Below are positions 8,656 through 57,625 of a stretch of DNA of 64,000 nt, piece by piece. This DNA is from a phage, in the sequence record PZ445514.1. The stretch is one strand, 5' to 3'. The first letter of the stretch is position 1. The number at the start of each line of letters is the position of its first letter. The position numbers and the translations under genes are program-made. A model generated the notes under the pieces. That model was not told where the DNA came from, ran no database searches, and worked only from the letters and a program-made list of their open reading frames with translations.

Positions 8656-9020
8656 TATTTGTCTCCTTGTTCTTCGTTAGTGTTTGCCGTGTGTGCAAAC
8701 CCTGCTTGAATTAATTTGTCCTGAACTTGAGCCAGCAGGCCCATTGCAAAACTTGTGGTCCCAGAGAGGGCCATCAGCATATCTCGTTGTTGAGCTACCC
8801 AACCTAAGGCATAGTCCAAACGACGATATTTTTCTTCTTCACGCAAAGCTTGGAATAATTGTTCAGCCTCTGGCTGTTGTGTGAGCTCCTGAAGTCTTCC
8901 CATGAAAGAAGAAAGCACTAGCAGAAGAGACACTTGATCTTTACTTAACCCTAAGAAAAATTCTTGAGGTTGTTCTTGCTCGTTCATCGCAACCGACGCT
9001 TGATCGTTCATTTGTTCCAT
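8655..9020 (-). CDS. hypothetical protein
   Basis: 121-aa ORF with GGAGA upstream; TAATG overlap with next gene. Confidence 0.55.
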   Translation of the reverse strand: MEQMNDQASVAMNEQEQPQEFFLGLSKDQVSLLLVLSSFMGRLQELTQQPEAEQLFQALREEEKYRRLDYALGWVAQQRDMLMALSGTTSFAMGLLAQVQDKLIQAGFAHTANTNEEQGDK

Positions 9021-9103
9021 TATGGAATCTCCGATTTTATTTGAACAACATAGAAGGAGACACTATTTTAGCATCCCCTTCTGTAAATTACAATAGGTAT
9101 TTG

Positions 9104-18807: not shown

Positions 18808-20133
18808 TTATTGATCAGACTTATCTTTCGCAACTAAGGCCGGGGCAAGTTTGTAATAACGGAAGCCACCACCACCTTGCCAGTTTACAGACTTAGAAAT
18901 ACCCCCTTGATCTTCGCCATCGATCACTTTTTCCAAGCGCGGAATAATATGGGTATGACAATGATCACCTAGCTCGATTGAGATCCAGCGTCTTTTCATC
19001 TTATGAGCTACAGCAGCAGTAGTTCCCGAACCACCGAATGAATCCAATACCAAATCGCCTTCTCGCGTGCACATTTCGAAAATCCGCTTCAAAAGCGCTT
19101 CTGGTTTTTTCCCATTTTTGAAACTAACGCCGCCTTCATTTGCTATTCCATTCCAACTAATGTCTGTCCAAACATCAGTTATTAGTTCCGCAGGTTGCAT
19201 CTCACCGTCAATTTCCAAAAGCCTATTGGAGTAAAAGACCATTTGCCTACCATTTGCGATATAAAATCCTTCAACATCCTCATTTGGATGTACATAAACC
19301 TTATCCCTATCTTTCTTTGACTTCTCGATAGTTTCTTTTCTCTTTATTTTAGCACCACCACCAATTGCAACAGATTGAAATACACGTTCTGCATTATCAA
19401 TTGCGAATTGTGCTAATTCATCATCGAATGTATCAGGCAGTTTTTTCTTGGCTTCTTTTGCATCTTTATAGCCATTGGCCTTTGCAAACGCATCGGCAAT
19501 ACCGCACCACGTCCAATTTTTATAATGGTCATCCGGGTTTAATAGGTATTTGTTATATCCTGTATCATACCCTTTAGGTATATAGATTTTGTTAAGCGGT
19601 TTCTGGGTGCGATCTTTTGCATATACAAGCAAAAAGTTTGCTGTGGAGAAAACTGTGGCTCCTGTTGCCTTAAATCCCGAAGGGGAATTTGTGGTCATCG
19701 ATATAGTATTTAACTGATTTGCACGACCAAAAATCTCGTCCATCAAAACTTTTAAATACGCCATTTCGCAATCATCTAAGTGAACGAATATTACCCCATC
19801 ATCACTTAGAAGATTACGAATTATTTCTAACCTATCCCTCATTAAGCCCAGCCAAATGGAATGCTCCAGGCTATCATCGTAATGCTCAAAAGCCCTCCCG
19901 GTATTGAATGGTGGGTCTATGTAAACACACTTCACTTTGCCTGCATACTCTTGCTCTAGCGCCTTCAATGCTAATAAGTTATCTCCAAAAATCAGTTTAT
20001 TATCAAAAATATCGTTTTCGGTCACTTTCTGGCTGTGGTAAGATTTGCTAGAATCTTCTAACAAAATGTGTGGCTCTAACTTTTTGCGCTCGTTTTTACC
20101 TATCCAGGTAAGTTCTAATTTGGTTTTGCTCAT
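18808..20133 (-). CDS. DNA methyltransferase, beta-class amino-methyltransferase (N6-adenine or N4-cytosine)
   Basis: 441 aa; DPPF motif near N-terminus and FGGSGTT AdoMet motif near C-terminus; AAGGAGAG upstream. Confidence 0.8.
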   Translation of the reverse strand: MSKTKLELTWIGKNERKKLEPHILLEDSSKSYHSQKVTENDIFDNKLIFGDNLLALKALEQEYAGKVKCVYIDPPFNTGRAFEHYDDSLEHSIWLGLMRDRLEIIRNLLSDDGVIFVHLDDCEMAYLKVLMDEIFGRANQLNTISMTTNSPSGFKATGATVFSTANFLLVYAKDRTQKPLNKIYIPKGYDTGYNKYLLNPDDHYKNWTWCGIADAFAKANGYKDAKEAKKKLPDTFDDELAQFAIDNAERVFQSVAIGGGAKIKRKETIEKSKKDRDKVYVHPNEDVEGFYIANGRQMVFYSNRLLEIDGEMQPAELITDVWTDISWNGIANEGGVSFKNGKKPEALLKRIFEMCTREGDLVLDSFGGSGTTAAVAHKMKRRWISIELGDHCHTHIIPRLEKVIDGEDQGGISKSVNWQGGGGFRYYKLAPALVAKDKSDQ

Positions 20134-42604: not shown

Positions 42605-42633
42605 ATAAGAAAACCGCCCCGTCAGGAGCGGTT
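42605..42633 (-). terminator. rho-independent terminator
   Basis: Minus strand AACCGCTCCTGACGGGGCGGTT followed by TTTCTT; downstream of gene ending at 42643. Confidence 0.5.
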
Positions 42634-42642
42634 AGATATATA

Positions 42643-44388
42643 TTAACGTTGTGCAATTACTACGTCTACGATATCACCAACACCACAATATGTTAATTGC
42701 AGCAAGGTAACACTATTAGCCTTGTTATTAATAACAGGTGTTGCCGACAGGATAGCATACTTATCGTGCAAAGTCACGTTGTGACCTACAGCATCCTGAA
42801 TGACATAGATAACTGCAGTGAATGGATAAGGTTTATCTTCCGCTGATGTCCCAGGCCACTGCCCTATTGTAAAATCCCCTTTCGCGTGGACAACATACAT
42901 GCTGGCCTGCCCGTTAGGTGTCCATGTCCCACTGGACGCGTCAACCTCCTCTAAGTCAAAATCTACCTTTCCTGCGTGGAAAGTAGGGGCAGTAATGGTT
43001 TTACCAGCCTCAATTTCTTGAGAGGTGGTTATCTTACCGCTGGAGTTAATGCCATTACAAACAAAGTTGACATTAGAGAAGTCTGGCAGCCACCCAGTCA
43101 CTGTGCCGGATATTTCAAGGTTGTGAAGGTAGGTGGTGCCCGTCCCTGCTGCGTTTAAACTAACATCTCCATTTACCTGCAAGTTTCGGGTAACGTTGCA
43201 GTTTTCAGAGTTTGCAGTTGTTGCAGTTAAAGTGGTGGTTGTCAGCTCGGTAATTGTACCTTTATTAGCTGTAAGCCCTTCTCCTTCAAAAGTTGCACGC
43301 TCATTAACTCTTAAGGTATTCAGAGCTATGTTTTGGATAGAGGCTGTACCTCGAATAACTACAGATCCACCAACCTCCAAATCGCCATTTATCAATGCGT
43401 CACCCGTGCTTTCAATATAGCTAGGGTAGATCATGGTGCCATCGACAGAGTAGGTTATCCCTGTAACAGTACCTGTCACCTCAAGGTTCTTAACCCTGGT
43501 GGTCCCATCGACCTGCAATGTCGGTTCGGTTGCTGCCTTCATGGCATTACCACGAATGTACACGTAGTCAAAAAAGTTATTACCCAGACCATCAAAATGT
43601 ACATCGTTATTATTAGCCACTGGTTTCCCAGAAGTTATAGTGTCAGCTATAATCCTGTGGGTAGACACTTCATGAGGTTGCAGCTCTGTGCTTCTCCAGT
43701 CTGCATGCTTAGGATCACTCCACGCAAAAGTAAGTGTAGAAGTATTTGCCGTGAGGATTAGGTTCCTGAAGCGTGCAGTAGAATCTGCTCCATTAACAGG
43801 CCCATGTAAGGTGAGTGTGCCCCCAACTATGGTGTTAGCAAGTTCTGTAAGACCTTTTACCACCAAAGACCCTACAGTAACTTTCATCCCCTCCATGGCT
43901 TCAAATATGCTATCCACATAGTCAACAACAAACTCTGTGTTTGCTATAGACTCAGACTTATCGTCCATTGGAGGCGTAGGTACTCGCGGGTCACCTTCGA
44001 ACCTCGGACTGTTAAGTTTTGCGTAGTATTTTGCCATTACTGCAGAGTCGGTATATAATCTCCAGTTTGGAGATTGTGAAGGATCTGCTGGCATTCTAAC
44101 CGGGTTAGATTTTGATGCTGCGGGAGCGTACCACCACTGAGGGCCTGTGTCCCCCTTAAACTCGTACAGCTGGTTAAAAACTGTTGTGGATGCACCATAC
44201 GCCCAAGGGATCGGTGGCGTTTTAAAATAAAGGGTGTCAAGCATGGCTTTTCGTACCGTAGGGATGGTGGTCCCATCCTCTACGACAACTTCATCCACAG
44301 CGTTACCGTTGACAATCAGGTGCAAACGTTCAGAATCAACAATTACTTGATCTACCGCCTGCTCAAAGCTTGTCATGTCTTGCGCCAT
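42643..44388 (-). CDS. putative tail fibre / receptor-binding protein
   Basis: 581 aa; repetitive G/T/N-rich beta segments; AAGGAGA upstream; terminator downstream. Confidence 0.6.
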   Translation of the reverse strand: MAQDMTSFEQAVDQVIVDSERLHLIVNGNAVDEVVVEDGTTIPTVRKAMLDTLYFKTPPIPWAYGASTTVFNQLYEFKGDTGPQWWYAPAASKSNPVRMPADPSQSPNWRLYTDSAVMAKYYAKLNSPRFEGDPRVPTPPMDDKSESIANTEFVVDYVDSIFEAMEGMKVTVGSLVVKGLTELANTIVGGTLTLHGPVNGADSTARFRNLILTANTSTLTFAWSDPKHADWRSTELQPHEVSTHRIIADTITSGKPVANNNDVHFDGLGNNFFDYVYIRGNAMKAATEPTLQVDGTTRVKNLEVTGTVTGITYSVDGTMIYPSYIESTGDALINGDLEVGGSVVIRGTASIQNIALNTLRVNERATFEGEGLTANKGTITELTTTTLTATTANSENCNVTRNLQVNGDVSLNAAGTGTTYLHNLEISGTVTGWLPDFSNVNFVCNGINSSGKITTSQEIEAGKTITAPTFHAGKVDFDLEEVDASSGTWTPNGQASMYVVHAKGDFTIGQWPGTSAEDKPYPFTAVIYVIQDAVGHNVTLHDKYAILSATPVINNKANSVTLLQLTYCGVGDIVDVVIAQR

Positions 44389-44397
44389 GATTTCTCC

Positions 44398-44664
44398 TTA
44401 AGCTTTTTGCTCTTCGTTTTTAACGTGGTCAGGGTGCTGGCAACCCCACCGGAGCGAGATGAATTTGCTAATAAGCTGGGGGCAAGCTACTGAAGGCGCG
44501 TATATCCACGCATACCATTCAGGAAGCGTATCATTATACCCCATATGAATAAACACCCCAGTCATCACCGCCATGCCTATGTTCGACCATAGCTTAGATT
44601 GGGACACTTTCGTAGGGTCATCGGATGCCGCAACCAGTCCCCATAAAAACTGAGTTAGTTTCAT
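44398..44664 (-). CDS. hypothetical small membrane protein downstream of tail fibre A
   Basis: 88 aa with hydrophobic segments; weak RBS. Confidence 0.45.
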   Translation of the reverse strand: MKLTQFLWGLVAASDDPTKVSQSKLWSNIGMAVMTGVFIHMGYNDTLPEWYAWIYAPSVACPQLISKFISLRWGCQHPDHVKNEEQKA

Positions 44665-44675
44665 TTACCCTCTTT

Positions 44676-45719
44676 TTAAGCATAAGATATAGTGATCCAT
44701 TGACCATTTACAAGTTTTTGGATAGCACCTGTCCAGTAGTCACCTTGATAAGGGTGTTTATAAGCGTAGTTACCAGAGCACATCACATGTCCAGGGTAGA
44801 CTCTTGACTCTCTGTAGGTGGTTTTGAAACGGTTTGCTATCCTTACATCATCAACCCCTCTGCTAGGCATAGGAATAGTAAGGTTACCACTGCTGTCTGC
44901 GCCGTTACCATTTACCCTGCGGACCACGTTTCTTCCACCAACTGTTGCATATTGGCCCCTGACGGTTTCATCGTTACAATCAACTCTTCCACCTATTTGA
45001 GCGCTTCCGCAGGATTGTTGTCCATTAACAGTGGCTCTTGGTATAGTAACTGCATTGGCATTTGCAGAGGAACTTTTTGCATCGTTGCATTCAAGATTTC
45101 CTTGGATAGCCAGTCTTGCACGGTTGGCAGTTATAGCATTGAGCTTCATAGCCGAAAACACAGGCTGCCCACCAGAAGGCTGAAATCTCCAACGGAACCC
45201 GTCTATTTGGTGAGAAGGATCATCAAGGTCTGTGCCGTCAGCACCACCGATGTTGTCCATAATCCAGAAATCCATAGTCGTCTTGTCTGGCGTTATGGTG
45301 GTATATATTGCCGCACTGTCTGTTGACGCAGATGCAAACTCGATTCTTTGGAGACCTAAAGTTTGAGTCTGAGTCATTATGTCTCCAGACTTGTCAACAT
45401 ATAGATCGTCCATTTCTTCAGGTGAGTATACATTGAGAACTTGACGTGCAGCAGCTTTGTCTGGAACGTCTGCTAGATTATTAGTGACCCTTAAGAATCT
45501 ATTATCCCATCCTGGGACAACATCTTCTGTTAAATGCTTTAACCACGCAGAAAGCATGTGAAGTTCAAAGTTAACAACTTCACATGCCATTCTTTGTGTC
45601 ATATCCCAACCTTTCAATCTCTCTTCTTTTTTTGGTTGAGACTTATTCAACTCTCCTGTATTTTCAAGCACAACATCCTGATTGGCCCAAATATCAAGAG
45701 GGATAACTGGTTTAGTCAT
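44676..45719 (-). CDS. tail fibre protein, paralog A
   Basis: Paralog of 46734-47774: shared N-terminus and C-terminal LVNGQWITISYA; ATG at 45719 after AGGAGAA. Confidence 0.65.
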   Translation of the reverse strand: MTKPVIPLDIWANQDVVLENTGELNKSQPKKEERLKGWDMTQRMACEVVNFELHMLSAWLKHLTEDVVPGWDNRFLRVTNNLADVPDKAAARQVLNVYSPEEMDDLYVDKSGDIMTQTQTLGLQRIEFASASTDSAAIYTTITPDKTTMDFWIMDNIGGADGTDLDDPSHQIDGFRWRFQPSGGQPVFSAMKLNAITANRARLAIQGNLECNDAKSSSANANAVTIPRATVNGQQSCGSAQIGGRVDCNDETVRGQYATVGGRNVVRRVNGNGADSSGNLTIPMPSRGVDDVRIANRFKTTYRESRVYPGHVMCSGNYAYKHPYQGDYWTGAIQKLVNGQWITISYA

Positions 45720-45808
45720 CACGTTCTCCTGAGAAAATTCCTTAGGACTATTTTAACACTTTAGAGAACAAAATGCAAGAACGGAGTCCTTTCCGTTCTG
45801 ACCTTTGT

Positions 45809-46123
45809 TTACCTTTTACTATGCTCTACGAGCATGTGCAAAATCTTTTGTACATCAGCTCGGATGCCGGAGACATCTGTCCTGACATCCTGCTTAAGGT
45901 CGTTAATATCGGCCTCTAGCTTGCTTAACCGGGTCTCGATAACGGAATCAAGTCTATCTTTTGTAACCATACTGTTTTTCACTAAGATGAGGTCTTTCTC
46001 CAGCTCATCTAACCTCTTGGAAATGCCTTTCCATTTGGTGTGCCACTGGTTGAAAGCCCATACACAGATCGGGACAACGGTACCCATGCAGATACCGTAC
46101 AATGCCGCCAAATCCAACTCCAC
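45809..46123 (-). CDS. hypothetical membrane protein with coiled-coil segment
   Basis: 104 aa; GTG start after AAGAGGAGG; N-terminal TM helix then heptad-like region. Confidence 0.5.
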   Translation of the reverse strand: MELDLAALYGICMGTVVPICVWAFNQWHTKWKGISKRLDELEKDLILVKNSMVTKDRLDSVIETRLSKLEADINDLKQDVRTDVSGIRADVQKILHMLVEHSKR

Positions 46124-46134
46124 AACACCTCCTC

Positions 46135-46719
46135 TTAGAGGGTAGGTCGCTCCGGGAAGAAAATGTCAGGGGCTTTAGATGTATCTATTTCAAGAAGTTT
46201 TACCCTGTACATTTTCAAATCTCTGATGTTACGTTTCTGGTCATCAGTAAGATCATATTCAAGGTCAATCATGTCTTGATAGGCACCAATTCTAGCAGTA
46301 GCCCAAGCAAGTTCTGTCTCTATGACACCCTCTGCCTGTTGAACAAAGAATTCATTGTCTGTGACAAATTCATCACCAACTAAACGCAAAGCGTCGTGGT
46401 GAAGCATAATGTTTTCTGGTACCTCTTCTTTTTTGGCGATAACCACACGAAGACCTGGAGCAGGCCATAAGGCATCAGGTTCTTCTGTAGATGTCTTAAG
46501 AATTCCCTTTTCGTCAACAAGTAGGAAGATACAACCCGGATTTTCTTGTCGTAATGTTCGTGACTGCACATACCAATCGCCATCATCATTACGTAAAAAA
46601 TACCCAGTGTATGCGGTGTAATCCTCAACCTCTTGAGGGGTCAGCTCTTTGGTTTCCTTGTTGGCGTGGTATTCGCCAGATCCCGGCTGGTAAAGTTTAA
46701 ACTCTTGAAGTATTTTCAT
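46135..46719 (-). CDS. tail fibre assembly protein, lambda Tfa-like
   Basis: 194 aa; C-terminal KMYRVKLLEIDTSKAPDIFFP resembles lambda Tfa [21 protein letters not shown] from memory; directly downstream of tail fibre B. Confidence 0.65.
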   Translation of the reverse strand: MKILQEFKLYQPGSGEYHANKETKELTPQEVEDYTAYTGYFLRNDDGDWYVQSRTLRQENPGCIFLLVDEKGILKTSTEEPDALWPAPGLRVVIAKKEEVPENIMLHHDALRLVGDEFVTDNEFFVQQAEGVIETELAWATARIGAYQDMIDLEYDLTDDQKRNIRDLKMYRVKLLEIDTSKAPDIFFPERPTL

Positions 46720-46733
46720 GCTAGTCCTCCGAT

Positions 46734-47774
46734 CTATGCATAATTAACAGTGATCCATTGACCGTTTACAAGTTTTTGTAAAGGTCCTGCCCAGTAAGTT
46801 GAACCACGCATCTCTTTTTTGTCACCGAAATGCCAGCCTGTGACAACGTAGCCGTTGCGGATTGGAGATTCAGAAACGCCGTCCACAAGTCTTGCACCGA
46901 TTCTGATGTCTTGCACACCTGTCTGCGGGATAGTGATCGTTACATCACCGTTACCGTTAGCCGTCACTCCGTTCACAGAGCGAACCACATTTCTGTTACC
47001 GACAACACAGTGCTGGCTTCTTACAACCATACTGTCACAACTTGCACCACCATTAACATATACTGACCCAGCAGTCAATTGACTAGCCACATTACAGTTG
47101 GTGAATGTTGCGGTATTGCTGATAGTAAGGTTATTACACCTCATGTTATCGACAACTTCAACATTGCCTACCACTTTCAACAGCGCACGGTTAGCTGTGA
47201 TCGCGTTAAGGTACATCAAAGTGAACTCTGGATTAATATCCGGCTGAGTTGGCTGGAATCTCCAACGAAACGCATCTATTGTAGATGTGCCACCATCATC
47301 AAACGACCCAAAATTATCACTTAACCCAAAGTCGAGAGTTGTCTTATCTGGGCCAATAGTTGTCTCTATCCAAGCCTTATCTGTCTCGGCAGCTTTAAAG
47401 TTGATACGTTGCAAACCCAATGGGCCTGTCATTGTATCACCTGTAACTTTTACATACCTGGCGTCTGCCTCTTCCTTGGTAATAATCCCAAGGTTTCTAC
47501 GGGCAACAGGAATGTTCAAAAGATCACTCAAGTTATTATCACGTACCAGATAACGGCCTTCTTGAGCGGGGATCTGCTCGTCAGCAATGTATTTTGCCCA
47601 AGTTCCGAGCATATTGAAAATATAGTTAAGTTCTTCACATGAGGGCTTTTGACCAAGATCCCAACCTTTTCTCCACAAATCATCAATCGGGCGTAGCCTG
47701 TTCTGTCTGTGGGTGTTAGGCAGAACCTGATCCTCCTCTGCCCAAATCTCTAATGGAAAACTAGGTTTTGACAT
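46734..47774 (-). CDS. tail fibre protein, paralog B
   Basis: 346 aa; AGGAGA upstream; paralog of 44676-45719. Confidence 0.65.
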   Translation of the reverse strand: MSKPSFPLEIWAEEDQVLPNTHRQNRLRPIDDLWRKGWDLGQKPSCEELNYIFNMLGTWAKYIADEQIPAQEGRYLVRDNNLSDLLNIPVARRNLGIITKEEADARYVKVTGDTMTGPLGLQRINFKAAETDKAWIETTIGPDKTTLDFGLSDNFGSFDDGGTSTIDAFRWRFQPTQPDINPEFTLMYLNAITANRALLKVVGNVEVVDNMRCNNLTISNTATFTNCNVASQLTAGSVYVNGGASCDSMVVRSQHCVVGNRNVVRSVNGVTANGNGDVTITIPQTGVQDIRIGARLVDGVSESPIRNGYVVTGWHFGDKKEMRGSTYWAGPLQKLVNGQWITVNYA

Positions 47775-47786
47775 TTTATCTCCTGA

Positions 47787-49859
47787 TTATGAGAAGTCTG
47801 GCGGGACAACATCTTCTACATACCCTTTCAGAGCAACCTGCCCCATATGAAGCACGGTAGAATCTCTAGCGGTAACAGTGATGCTGTCAGACATTACTTG
47901 CGGGTATGCCCACACATACTGTTTTACCTCAGGGTATCTATACTCTATAGTTGCCATGTTTCCGCAAATACATCTCCATAAAAATTCTTGGTAATTCCTA
48001 GTTGGGTCGTAGCCATATACCGGAGCAAGCTCTTTACTAGGAACGAACCCTGCAAGGTATTGTATTTCAGACGGTTGCCAACCTAACTTAACGATAGGTA
48101 TGTTTACAGACTCTTTTGCCTTTTCAATACCTCCCTGCATCACCCAATCGTAGCACTCGGTGCAGAAGAAATCAAGAGCACCTGCTTCCTTTTTATATTG
48201 GTCAGCAAGGTTCAGCTTTTGTGTAAGCTCAGTTTCCATAATGGTTGGGAAAAACAACAAAGCTGTCATCTGAGCTGATGCAGCGTGTGCCTTTATTGCC
48301 TTTGAAATAGCCGCAATACGAGCGCCAAGCTTACCACGACAAAATGCTACATACTTGTCGTAAACACCGCCAGTTTTAGGATCGTCAATAGTCCCAATAT
48401 CTAATGCATACTCACCTGTCTCATCATAAAACGCCTGTTTTGTAGGGTAATCATAAATACAAGGTCTACGAGTATCGGTATTGTACCACCACCACGGTTC
48501 ACCAACCTGCATAATCACTGGCAGGTTGTTTCTCATAGCGGCTGATGCAAAATTCTTAAATACTGCAGTAAGGAAATTCATACCCTCTTCAATGGTTGGA
48601 GACAGGAGGTAGCTACAAGGTGTATACCCTGTTTTAGCGTAGTTATCGTTCCAGTCTCTTTGGGTCCATTCCAACGGGCAGGCATCGCTGAAAAGCTCAA
48701 AACTTACAGATTGCATAACGTCGAAGTTATGTCGTTTGGCATTGTACATAAAATCATCATGCCATTTATAAGCTGCAGCGTTTAGCGCTCCTGTTCTGTT
48801 TATAGACCATTGGGTTCCTGACCATGTGTAGTCATAATAATGACTCATACCAACATAATGGTTTATGGTTCCGGTATAGCCCAGACGCTTGATATTGTTC
48901 AACACCCTTAAAGGAGATACGTTCCACATATCGTCATATGCGGTGCAGATCCCAACGTCGTGCTCTCTCACCTGAATATTGTTAAGTTGCATCATTTTCC
49001 AGCCTGTGTCTGGCTGAAGCAGATCTAGGCGCAACTCACACTCTACGTTTTCCGTTCTCGGGTCTGTGCTGTTACTTACCCAGTCTTTAGGCATAAGCGG
49101 TATTAAAATCCTTCTCACCTGCCGAGGATCAACACCCATCATGCTGTTGTTCTGGTCCATCCCGACGCAGTCCTCAAAATCAATATGAATTTCTGCAACA
49201 TTCTTATCCTCTGAGATGCTGACAGCATATTGAGCTAAAGGAACATAGATGATTGTGCCATCAACAAGGTCTACAGTCATAATCATCTTTTCAGGAGTGG
49301 AGAAGTTGCTGGCGTTGGTTATTGACATTCTGAACCAAAGCTTGGTATTTCTCATCTCATAATGATCATCAAACCCAATACCGAAATGATCATACTTGTC
49401 AACTGTTTCCCAAATGCACCCGGCCATACCTCCATATGTTCTTGACACTAAACGGTTAATACAACAGTTATTATCTGCAACAATACAGGTACTTTCAGTC
49501 TGCTGAGTAGTTGTAACCCAATATCTTGGGTGGAACATTCTCTCCTCAACAGTATCCCAAGATATCCTGTCAAGATTCTCATCTGAAACTATTGTACATT
49601 TCGCCCTTTGTGTTCCAATCATCACCCCTTGGGATTTTGATGAAAACTCCATAAAGAAGCTTCTTGGCAACCTATTGGGTAATTTGTCAACAATTTCCAC
49701 CGGGATCTCAATACTGGTTGCCCCAATTGGGATAGTTACATCGCCCTCAACATGATTATAATCCCTACCAGGAACGGCAGTATCCTGAACTGTTCGGTAA
49801 TGAAACTGTGCAGCCATTGTAGAGTAATCACGGTAAGGTTTAAAAACAGCTGTTGCCAT
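47787..49859 (-). CDS. putative tail/baseplate-associated protein
   Basis: 690 aa; N-terminal Calx-beta-like segment GDVTIPIGATSIEIPVEIVD; W/Y-rich; function unknown. Confidence 0.55.
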   Translation of the reverse strand: MATAVFKPYRDYSTMAAQFHYRTVQDTAVPGRDYNHVEGDVTIPIGATSIEIPVEIVDKLPNRLPRSFFMEFSSKSQGVMIGTQRAKCTIVSDENLDRISWDTVEERMFHPRYWVTTTQQTESTCIVADNNCCINRLVSRTYGGMAGCIWETVDKYDHFGIGFDDHYEMRNTKLWFRMSITNASNFSTPEKMIMTVDLVDGTIIYVPLAQYAVSISEDKNVAEIHIDFEDCVGMDQNNSMMGVDPRQVRRILIPLMPKDWVSNSTDPRTENVECELRLDLLQPDTGWKMMQLNNIQVREHDVGICTAYDDMWNVSPLRVLNNIKRLGYTGTINHYVGMSHYYDYTWSGTQWSINRTGALNAAAYKWHDDFMYNAKRHNFDVMQSVSFELFSDACPLEWTQRDWNDNYAKTGYTPCSYLLSPTIEEGMNFLTAVFKNFASAAMRNNLPVIMQVGEPWWWYNTDTRRPCIYDYPTKQAFYDETGEYALDIGTIDDPKTGGVYDKYVAFCRGKLGARIAAISKAIKAHAASAQMTALLFFPTIMETELTQKLNLADQYKKEAGALDFFCTECYDWVMQGGIEKAKESVNIPIVKLGWQPSEIQYLAGFVPSKELAPVYGYDPTRNYQEFLWRCICGNMATIEYRYPEVKQYVWAYPQVMSDSITVTARDSTVLHMGQVALKGYVEDVVPPDFS

Positions 49860-52047: not shown

Positions 52048-52117
52048 GTCACTCCTCCGGTATGAAAATCTCTACAAGGTATTTTACCAAATTTTGTAAC
52101 AATAGTCAATCTGAGCA

Positions 52118-57560: not shown

Positions 57561-57625
57561 TGTGCCTCCAGGTTAAACAATCATGATAGCTATTTTACCA
57601 GATTTTGAGTTAATACGCAATACAA

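Follow-up and report, generated by a model that had tools for sequence, protein, structure and literature searches.

The short-tail-fibre locus of an rV5-like phage: two paralogous fibres and one predicted chaperone of the Mu GpU / lambda Tfa family

Results

Organization of the locus

In the present study, we analysed a stretch of 64,000 nucleotides (nt) of phage DNA (sequence record PZ445514.1), hereafter referred to as the window, in which positions 44398 to 47774 hold two tail-fibre genes (gp33 and gp30), the gene of a predicted tail fibre assembly chaperone (gp32) and two small genes (gp31 and gp29). A 4-kb region around this locus is 100% identical to Escherichia phage rV5_ev147/ev156 of the genus Vequintavirus and 95-99.8% identical to more than 100 other Vequintavirus genomes, and at least 80% of this region is present in one piece in 112 records. 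The locus is the known short-tail-fibre locus of rV5, with two paralogous fibres and one chaperone, and it has already been published and annotated. All five open reading frames (ORFs) of the initial annotation, which had been made from the letters of the sequence without database searches, were recovered on the minus strand at the coordinates listed in Table 1. All genes of the locus lie on that strand, in the order gp34-gp33-gp32-gp31-gap-gp30-gp29-gp28 (numbering of Kropinski et al. 2013, PMC3606486).

The gp30 ORF encodes 348 amino acids (aa) when read from a GTG (44676-45722) and 347 aa when read from the annotated ATG at 45719, which is preceded by AGGAG at a distance of 6 nt. The start of gp32 lies 14 nt past the stop codon of gp33, an arrangement that is identical in all relatives examined. 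Hereafter, S1 and S2 denote the two fibre types represented by gp33 and gp30, respectively.

Table 1. Features of the short-tail-fibre locus and its surroundings (positions in the window)
Feature	Position	Strand	Length or basis
gp33, short tail fibre paralogue S1 (fibre B of the initial annotation)	46734-47774	-	346 aa
gp33 residues 1-~108, putative baseplate-docking joint	~47451-47774	-	phiTE homology
gp33 residues 286-346, Mu GpS-type tip	46737-46919	-	GpS match
gp32, predicted Mu GpU / lambda Tfa-family chaperone	46135-46719	-	194 aa
gp31, N-terminal transmembrane segment and charged coiled-coil-like helix	45809-46123	-	104 aa
Hairpin directly after the gp31 stop, AGAACGGAAAGGACTCCGTTCT	45778-45799	-	pattern scan
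Late-type promoter P030 for gp30	45749-45778	-	motif and literature
gp30, short tail fibre paralogue S2 (fibre A of the initial annotation)	44676-45719	-	347 aa
gp30 tip, residues ~287-347	44679-44861	-	collinearity with gp33
gp30 3' terminal stretch, codons ~328-343, YWTGAIQKLVNGQWIT	44691-44738	-	DNA similarity to gp33
gp29, small weakly hydrophobic protein	44398-44664	-	88 aa
gp28, lateral fibre protein, final gene of the P030 unit	42643-44388	-	581 aa
Terminator t028, 3' of gp28	42612-42633	-	terminator scan; Kropinski et al. 2013, Table S4
gp34, fibre with N4-gp65-like TIM barrel	47787-49859	-	690 aa
Copies of TGNTAAAATA	9064-9073, 19345-19354, 45749-45758, 52080-52089, 57591-57600	- (all)	pattern scan

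The two paralogous fibres

The fibre proteins gp33 and gp30 can be aligned from end to end at 43-44% identity (E 6e-95), and both match the family phrog_4465 over their whole length (gp33 at 2e-171 and gp30 at 2e-166). The initial annotation had taken them for paralogues that are not near-identical throughout, and this is what we found, with an end-to-end identity of 43%. It had also described them as sharing their termini and differing in the centre, and this pattern did not hold: identity amounts to 37% over residues 1-100, 59-60% over residues 101-195, 36-37% over residues 196-285 and 45% over residues 286-346, which makes the centre the best-conserved block, while strong conservation at the ends is limited to the first ~12 and the last ~17 residues. 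The two proteins share the C-terminal ending LVNGQWIT(V/I)(N/S)YA, and gp30 is collinear with gp33 down to the last residue, with a single one-residue indel in the tip and with the terminal motif kept.

At the nucleotide level, the only substantial similarity between the two genes (blastn) is a stretch of 48 nt at 87.5% identity near their 3' ends (44691-44738 against 46749-46796), and this stretch forms part of a longer direct repeat, D1 (62 nt, 82%). Synonymous, third-position identity among the conserved codons reaches 0.77 in the last ~16 codons, compared with ~0.3-0.4 elsewhere. A second, shorter DNA repeat of the pair (45178-45207 against 47251-47280; 30 nt, 87%) spans the conserved (D/G)(A/G)FRWRFQP motif in the central block.

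Much of this pair has been described before, and the genes treated by Kropinski et al. (2013, PMC3606486) and by Maffei et al. (2021, PMC8594841) are the same locus, with no difference in the object. Kropinski et al. reported gp30 and gp33 as proteins of similar size and 42.3% identity with an HHpred similarity to T4 gp12 (1PDI), and suggested that two chemotypes of lipopolysaccharide (LPS) may be recognised. Maffei et al., in the work on the BASEL collection, described two paralogous short tail fibres and a chaperone in Vequintavirinae sensu stricto, traced the homology of this locus to the one-fibre counterpart in phi92-like phages and, in the end, to Mu GpS/GpU, and placed the terminal receptor at the first outer-core glucose, with no allelic variation; the BASEL records annotate these genes accordingly. 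In the later literature that we searched, including the 2025 BASEL update and a 2026 receptor-prediction preprint, we found nothing on the two paralogues. The fibre pair as such is textbook-level knowledge for the genus and adds little as a discovery.

Homology to solved structures is found at both ends of gp33. Residues 1-108 match the short tail fibre (STF) of phage phiTE (9cuy) at E 1.4e-19, or at 9.5e-33 with the family profile, and residues 1-83 of gp30 match the same chain at E 1.1e-9; according to the phiTE structure paper, residues 3-92 of that STF dock as a trimeric joint onto baseplate wedge 1. At the other end, gp33 residues 286-343 match positions 440-501 of Mu GpS (5yvq_A) at E 8e-7, or at 1.2e-11 with the family profile, and the tip region of GpS (438-502) is the part solved in complex with GpU (5YVQ). 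Both proteins are accordingly predicted to be trimeric baseplate fibres composed of a phiTE-type joint, a shaft and a C-terminal tip, the tip being directly of the GpS type in gp33. Taken together with the Mu GpU likeness of gp32 described below, these matches would make the module a Mu S/U-type tip and chaperone grafted onto a Vequintavirinae baseplate joint.

The comparison with known systems brings out both likeness and difference. The fibre of Pectobacterium phage phiTE (9CUY/9MJN; Vequintavirinae, Certrevirus) shares with rV5 the N-terminal ~100 residues and the terminal PIQKKVNGVWVTI motif, but it is one fibre of 554 aa with coiled-coil and immunoglobulin-like (Ig-like) domains in a flagellotropic phage, whereas rV5 has two fibres of ~347 aa and relatives that depend on the LPS core. 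As for Mu, residues 438-502 of GpS can be aligned with the gp33 tip, both ending in a Q-K-x-(V/I)-N-G-x-W-like motif, and the fibre gene is directly followed by the chaperone gene in either phage; however, GpS has 504 aa compared with 346 aa for the rV5 fibre, its N-terminal attachment domain is different, and Mu carries alternative S/U and S'/U' pairs with a chaperone each on an invertible segment, in contrast to the two co-oriented fibres and one chaperone of rV5. T4 gp12 is drawn upon in the literature as a functional analogue, that is, as a fibre on the baseplate whose terminal receptor is the LPS core, but phmmer and profile searches of the PDB returned no gp12 chain at E up to 1. T4 gp12 uses the chaperone gp57A, which is not a Tfa-family protein. 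The label of short tail fibre is, relative to T4 gp12, a functional analogy, and a remote similarity is supported only by the HHpred report of 2013.

Independently of the pair, the tip of gp33 (residues 287-344) proved to be 57-59% identical to the fibre C-termini of the unrelated ~52-kb Salmonella and E. coli phages JEP7, birk, UPF_BP2, brorfarstad and SPLA9, and the same search of phage records yielded no such outside matches for the gp30 tip. The gp33 matches suggest that a tip of ~58 aa moves between phage groups as a module.

A single chaperone of the Mu GpU type

The C-terminal part of gp32, which the initial annotation had likened to lambda Tfa, does belong to that family by profile: residues 121-192 match Pfam PF02413 (Caudo_TAP) with 45.8 bits against a cut-off of 22.1 (E 8.4e-12), and the protein also matches phrog_136 at E 2e-36. 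With respect to lambda Tfa and Caudo_TAP, only this conserved C-terminal domain finds a match; the closest full-length solved relative is Mu GpU, to which the gp32 family profile aligns over positions 1-174 of 175 (5yvq_B, E 1e-24). Hence, gp32 is predicted to be a tail fibre assembly chaperone of the Mu GpU / lambda Tfa family. Our survey of Tfa genes covered 247 places in 245 records, and all 19 Vequintavirus rows listed there have one place per genome.

The layout of Tfa proteins is reportedly, in the 2019 account of North et al., one of a variable N-terminal fibre-binding domain and a conserved C-terminal domain. In the alignment of the gp32 family, invariant columns are found in both halves, and the identity of the N- and C-terminal domains differs by pair (42 and 53 for rV5 and L014, 26 and 16 for NINP and GAP31), the N-terminal domain not being consistently the more variable one.

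A late promoter in the gap before gp30

The only sizeable intergenic space of the module is the 86-nt gap between gp31 and gp30, and it contains the late-type promoter P030, made up of TTGCAT (45773-45778), a 17-nt spacer and TAAAAT within TGTTAAAATA (45749-45758), with ~30 nt between its end and the gp30 ATG. Table S4 of Kropinski et al. (2013, PMC3606486) lists P030 as a putative late promoter with exactly the sequence found here, and the record of phage Gotham has a promoter annotated at the same place. The motif TGNTAAAATA matches five times in the window, compared with 0.89 matches expected, and all five lie on the minus, i.e., coding, strand; four of them are intergenic, 30-45 nt upstream of the starts at 9020, 45719, 52047 and 57560, and the copy at 19345 falls inside an ORF of 441 aa. 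The junction of gp31 and gp30 is conserved at 95% or more in all 117 Vequintavirus records and was found nowhere outside them. Across four diverged lineages, TTGCATTTT and TG(C/T)TAAAATA are invariant, and the spacer and the hairpin vary.

Since gp30 has its own promoter in the gap, gp33-gp32-gp31 would belong to a unit that starts further upstream, and gp30-gp29-gp28 would form a unit of their own that ends at the terminator at 42612-42633. The upstream unit possibly starts at the TGNTAAAATA copy before gp36 (52080-52089).

The hairpin that directly follows the gp31 stop is terminator-like, without a clean T-run, and the 90-nt gp31|gp30 gap folds as RNA with -23.1 kcal/mol (z = -3.06). Across the sister lineages only a 3-bp core is shared and compensatory changes occur in two of the eight predicted pairs, and we do not claim this hairpin as a conserved structure.

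The small genes and the slot of gp30

Neither of the two small genes appears to be an accessory of a particular fibre. The 104-aa gp31 matches phrog_5345 (unknown function; E 1.5e-48) and has, as the initial annotation had proposed, one clear transmembrane (TM) segment (residues 5-23, KD hydropathy 1.91) followed by a charged, heptad-compatible helix. The 88-aa gp29, which had been called membrane-like, matches phrog_1322 with its label of membrane protein (E 2.7e-32), yet its hydropathy maximum (KD19 1.05) stays under the TM threshold of 1.6; the protein is only weakly hydrophobic and its membrane-like character tentative. Searches of Pfam, PHROGs and NCBIfam with gp31, gp29 and the 157-aa protein introduced below returned only families of unknown function and sub-threshold coiled-coil noise, with no assignment of gp31 in Pfam or NCBIfam and no similarity of gp29 to any chaperone family in the three collections.

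In eight loci of single-fibre relatives, from five or more lineages (Av-05, GAP31, EC152, NINP13076, Mydo, Hena1, TH18 and the metagenomic L017), the order is STF, Tfa, a 104-aa gene, a 157-aa gene (133 aa in Mydo), an 87-91-aa gene (55 aa as annotated in Hena1) and a fibre of ~585 aa. The 104-aa genes of Av-05, GAP31, Mydo, EC152, Hena1, NINP13076 and TH18 are homologues of gp31 (~32% identity) and correspond to it in position, the 87-91-aa genes are homologues of gp29 (48-51% identity) in the same position, and gp28 (phrog_4549, E 5e-251; annotated as a lateral tail fiber with a glycosidase domain) adjoins the small-gene trio in the relatives as well. The three families of this trio are phrog_5345, phrog_7451 and phrog_1322. 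In rV5, gp30 sits in the exact slot of the polytopic membrane gene of 133-157 aa.

Because the homologues of gp31 and gp29 flank the 157-aa gene in phages with a single fibre, the two proteins are not fibre-specific accessories, contrary to the view of the initial annotation that each fibre came with a non-equivalent accessory gene; judging from position and homology, they would be the leftover members of an older conserved trio of small membrane-type proteins (104/157/88 aa). gp31 and gp29 should therefore be neither annotated nor engineered as fibre accessories. Nor did its duplicated cassette hold up, as fibre A lies by itself, with a late promoter of its own, where the single-fibre relatives have the membrane gene.

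The 157-aa gene occurs in 107 phage records, 16 of them Escherichia phages, as against 97 rV5-like Escherichia records that carry the present module, and no rV5-like phage or Vequintavirus is among the 40 of these 107 records that were listed. A tblastn search of the window with seven homologues revealed no remnant of it, the best hit (E 0.057) being at chance level and elsewhere in the window. The phi92-like phage PaulScherrer has only STF, Tfa and a 113-aa gene before the next large fibre. For this phi92-like 113-aa counterpart, a weak Rz-like match (E 5e-4) raised the idea of a spanin role, which we rejected because the real spanins were mapped elsewhere in LL12 (gp65/66).

The trio is exemplified by L003:6638-7701 (Av-05), recurs in L004, L006-L010 and L017, and spans most Vequintavirinae genera. 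A longer homologue of gp29, of 118-126 aa, is encoded by the divergent lineage with two fibres (L014:7076-7432, L015:6024-6404 and L016:6067-6447), with a C-terminal RYSD/YSD-repeat extension that has no counterpart in rV5 gp29.

Conservation within the genus and between deep lineages

Within the genus, both fibres hardly vary. For gp33, 93 records show an identity of 99% or more and another 23 fall between 95% and 99% (116 records at 95% or more); for gp30, 56 records reach 99% or more, 60 lie at 95-99% and one lies at 90-95%. When examined as a possible hypervariable cassette, the fibre alleles came out near-invariant within the genus, with diversity only between deep lineages. The cassette swapping among related phages that the initial annotation had proposed to look for is thus not seen in the comparison of ~116 Vequintavirus genomes, and its idea of host-range diversification fails within the genus (at least 95% identity in 116 records) and survives, weakly, in the form of differences between lineages at deep evolutionary distance.

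A search of 5.8 billion proteins with gp30 yielded eight relatives at E up to 1e-10. Among them are the S2-type matches P0002, 78% identical to gp30, and P0003-P0005, 46-49% identical, and the contigs of all four show the layout S1, Tfa, 104 aa, S2, a small gene and a fibre of ~583 aa; no stand-alone S2-type fibre was found in this search, with the context examined for these four matches. In the uncultured sister lineages L012, L014 and L015, identity to rV5 is 87%, 72% and 74% for S1, 78%, 50% and 46% for S2, and 78%, 44% and 44% for Tfa, respectively, and by these values S2 evolves faster than S1 in the deeper lineages. The tip of gp30 is 93% conserved between rV5 and L012, although the whole S2 proteins are 78% identical.

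The N-terminal joints group by type of paralogue: S1 orthologues share 75-88% identity and S2 orthologues 56-80%, while paralogues share 36-41% in every lineage. This clustering by type in every lineage indicates that the duplication is older than these lineages, and in the joints, too, S2 is the faster copy throughout. S1 is the copy in the ancestral position and corresponds, by its place in the locus, to the lone short fibre of related genera; S2 is the derived copy that, together with its own promoter, is taken to have replaced the middle gene of the trio. As to where S2 came from, duplication in place or an unsampled relative, the trees depend on the region used and leave both origins standing.

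Co-variation of tip and chaperone

Across 13 lineages, the identity of the S1 tip follows that of Tfa (rho 0.74-0.75, Mantel p about 0.0005), and the other regions of the fibre do so weakly (rho 0.21-0.38). The clearest case is offered by Av-05 (L003) and TH18 (L010), whose fibres are 93-100% identical up to residue ~285, with tips of 46% identity and Tfa proteins of 32-35% identity (181 vs 194 aa); this is a clean natural exchange of tip and chaperone as a unit.

The two paralogous tips within one genome also differ in their resemblance from lineage to lineage, being 45% identical in rV5 and in L012 and reaching 84-87% identity in L014 and L015. These last two lineages also stand apart from rV5, with 35-61% identity of both tips to those of rV5 and 44% identity of Tfa to gp32.

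Discussion

Proposed function of the module

We have considerable confidence in the following reading as a whole: the locus encodes two paralogous fibres and one GpU-type chaperone, gp30 heads a unit transcribed from P030, and it occupies the slot of the middle gene of the small-gene trio. In the late phase, gp33-gp32-gp31 would be expressed from the upstream late unit and gp30-gp29-gp28 from P030. By analogy with Mu S/U, gp32 would bind the C-terminal tip and nucleate trimerisation from the C-terminus, probably serving both fibres through the shared terminal YW.G..QKLVNGQWIT motif. The single Tfa, this shared motif and the similarity of the tips within the genomes of L014-L016 make such a double service somewhat more likely than not, although it is held with less assurance than the reading as a whole. 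Once mounted on the baseplate, both fibres would recognise the outer core of the LPS, their terminal receptor, as the genetics of LL12 and of the BASEL phages suggest. The diverged joints (37% identity), each conserved among its own orthologues, may prevent mixed trimers and perhaps direct the two fibres to different docking sites.

Several observations weigh against this reading or parts of it. In the PDB searches, gp30 alone gave no match to Mu GpS, and its tip is linked to GpS only through collinearity with gp33; the tips of gp30 and gp33 in rV5 are only 45% identical, which speaks against a common chaperone. The correlation between S1 tip and Tfa could come from physical linkage and nothing more, the tip being encoded at the 3' end of S1, next to the Tfa gene. 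Over the N-terminal 100 residues, each paralogue has closer relatives among the outgroup fibres (identities of up to 52-57%) than in its partner (37%), and in neighbour-joining trees the pairing of the paralogues is recovered in 1 of 300 bootstraps for the N-terminal part, 152 of 300 for the middle and 114 of 300 for the full length, the low N-terminal and full-length support being the awkward values. The direction of the change at the 157-aa gene, loss or replacement rather than gain, follows from parsimony without a rooted genome tree. Finally, the text of Kropinski et al. (2013, PMC3606486) names gp30, gp32 and gp33 among the proteins detected by phage proteomics, yet none of the three is among 18 of the 19 loci in the mass spectrometry (MS) table of its Additional file 5 (61, 60, 53, 52, 133, 79, 152, 82, 34, 237, 41, 62, 235, 106, 37, 1, 27 and 228). 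The 19th locus we infer to be the portal gp64. Test peptides of gp30, gp32 and gp33 were not found in that MS supplement either.

Weighing of alternative explanations

The N-terminal values just mentioned speak for a horizontal origin of gp30, by which a moron-like unit with its own promoter would have come from an unsampled lineage akin to the Vequintavirinae and taken the place of the 157-aa gene. Residues 1-100 of gp30 are indeed 46-52% identical to the fibres of Seunavirus and Avunavirus and 43% to that of Mydo, in comparison with 37% to gp33, and the one sizeable gap of the module holds a promoter for gp30 and, upstream of it, a hairpin, which fits such an arrival as well as the collapse of the N-terminal bootstrap does. 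Over residues 101-195, however, the two rV5 fibres are mutual closest relatives (59-60%, vs 43-54% to the outgroups), the protein search brought up no S2 on its own, all four S2-type matches with examined context lying in two-fibre layouts, and the faster rate of S2 can by itself explain its distant look; we regard acquisition as unlikely, though with enough in its favour to be kept in mind. Much less credit can be given to the picture of two swapped host-range cassettes, each with its own accessory (Tfa in the case of fibre B and the 88-aa protein in that of fibre A). It could point to the different tips of the rV5 fibres, to the tip-plus-Tfa swapping elsewhere in the subfamily (Av-05 vs TH18) and to the strong difference of S2 between deep lineages, but gp29 and gp31 homologues stand at the same positions in single-fibre phages, gp29 is similar to no chaperone family, and neither fibre falls below 95% conservation in ~116 genomes, in line with the lack of allelic variation noted by Maffei et al. 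(2021, PMC8594841), which leaves this picture very improbable.

That gp30 has become a sub-functionalised structural adaptor of the fibre network, anchoring or contacting gp28, for example, without binding a receptor, is scarcely more credible. Its co-transcription with gp28 from P030, its joint of a distinct type, a tip without a direct Mu GpS match and the contact between long and short fibres in phiTE could all be read in that sense; gp30 is nevertheless collinear with gp33 to the end with one single-residue tip indel and the terminal motif kept, the high conservation of its tip between rV5 and L012 (93% vs 78% for the whole protein) is as expected for a functional binding domain, and gp28 homologues are present without S2 in single-fibre relatives. 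Mu GpS and GpU are encoded by the invertible G segment, and the homology of tip and chaperone to these two proteins brings to mind an invertible switch of S/U-type fibre genes in the style of Mu and P1. Here, though, both fibre genes are co-oriented on the same strand, the only inverted repeats are 14-19 nt long with 78-86% complementarity, i.e., at chance level, no invertase is annotated in the surrounding 22 kb, and the layout is fixed in 112 records. Gene orientation and repeat analysis together effectively refute an inversion of this kind.

Concerted evolution of the tips and a possible membrane module

Returning to the reading of two paralogous fibres with one GpU-type chaperone, we offer one further and tentative thought on the tips. 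As the genome keeps a single Tfa, both fibres would have to stay recognisable to it, and this constraint might have driven a concerted evolution in which the S2 tip was homogenised with the S1 tip by gene conversion in L014-L016, while the rV5 S2 tip escaped except for the last ~17 residues. If true, these residues, unusually similar at the DNA and synonymous level, would define the minimal Tfa recognition element. We would not call this scenario probable, and the same caution extends to the corollary attached to it, namely that gp31, gp29 and the 157-aa gene of the relatives could form a receptor-linked membrane module, serving, for example, superinfection exclusion or as the holin system, whose middle part was traded for a second fibre. 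According to the LL12 paper, no holin could be pinpointed in this phage group.

Significance

What is new in this analysis is modest: the location of gp30 in the slot of the 157-aa gene, the conserved centre of the fibres, the faster S2, the co-variation of tip and Tfa, and the shared paralogue tips in one lineage. Phages of the rV5 type are nonetheless common, have a broad host range and are used in cocktails, and their terminal-receptor step depends on the short fibres. For fibre engineering in this group, the last ~60 residues together with Tfa are best treated as one exchangeable unit, and gp30, because it is the faster-evolving copy, is the better candidate for natural shifts of specificity.

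Neighbouring fibre gene and record labels

The fibre gp34 upstream of gp33 carries a Calx-beta domain and, as in the "non-contractile tail sheath" gp65 of N4, an N-terminal and a TIM-barrel domain (Pfam 4e-80); the BASEL annotation calls it a lateral fibre that has glycosidase and deacetylase domains. According to a 2026 preprint, it is the deacetylase-domain tail fibre (phi92 Gp142 type) that binds the NGR glycan in this phage group, and from the BASEL annotation and the N4 gp65-type domains gp34 appears to be that NGR-glycan-binding fibre.

Another observation concerns 16-21 records labelled "Campylobacter phage" with the host Campylobacter jejuni (e.g., MG065655, MG065647 and MG065690), which are 98-99% identical to rV5-like and phi92-like coliphages across the module. 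Probably, the Campylobacter host labels of these records are wrong, or the phages were contaminants.

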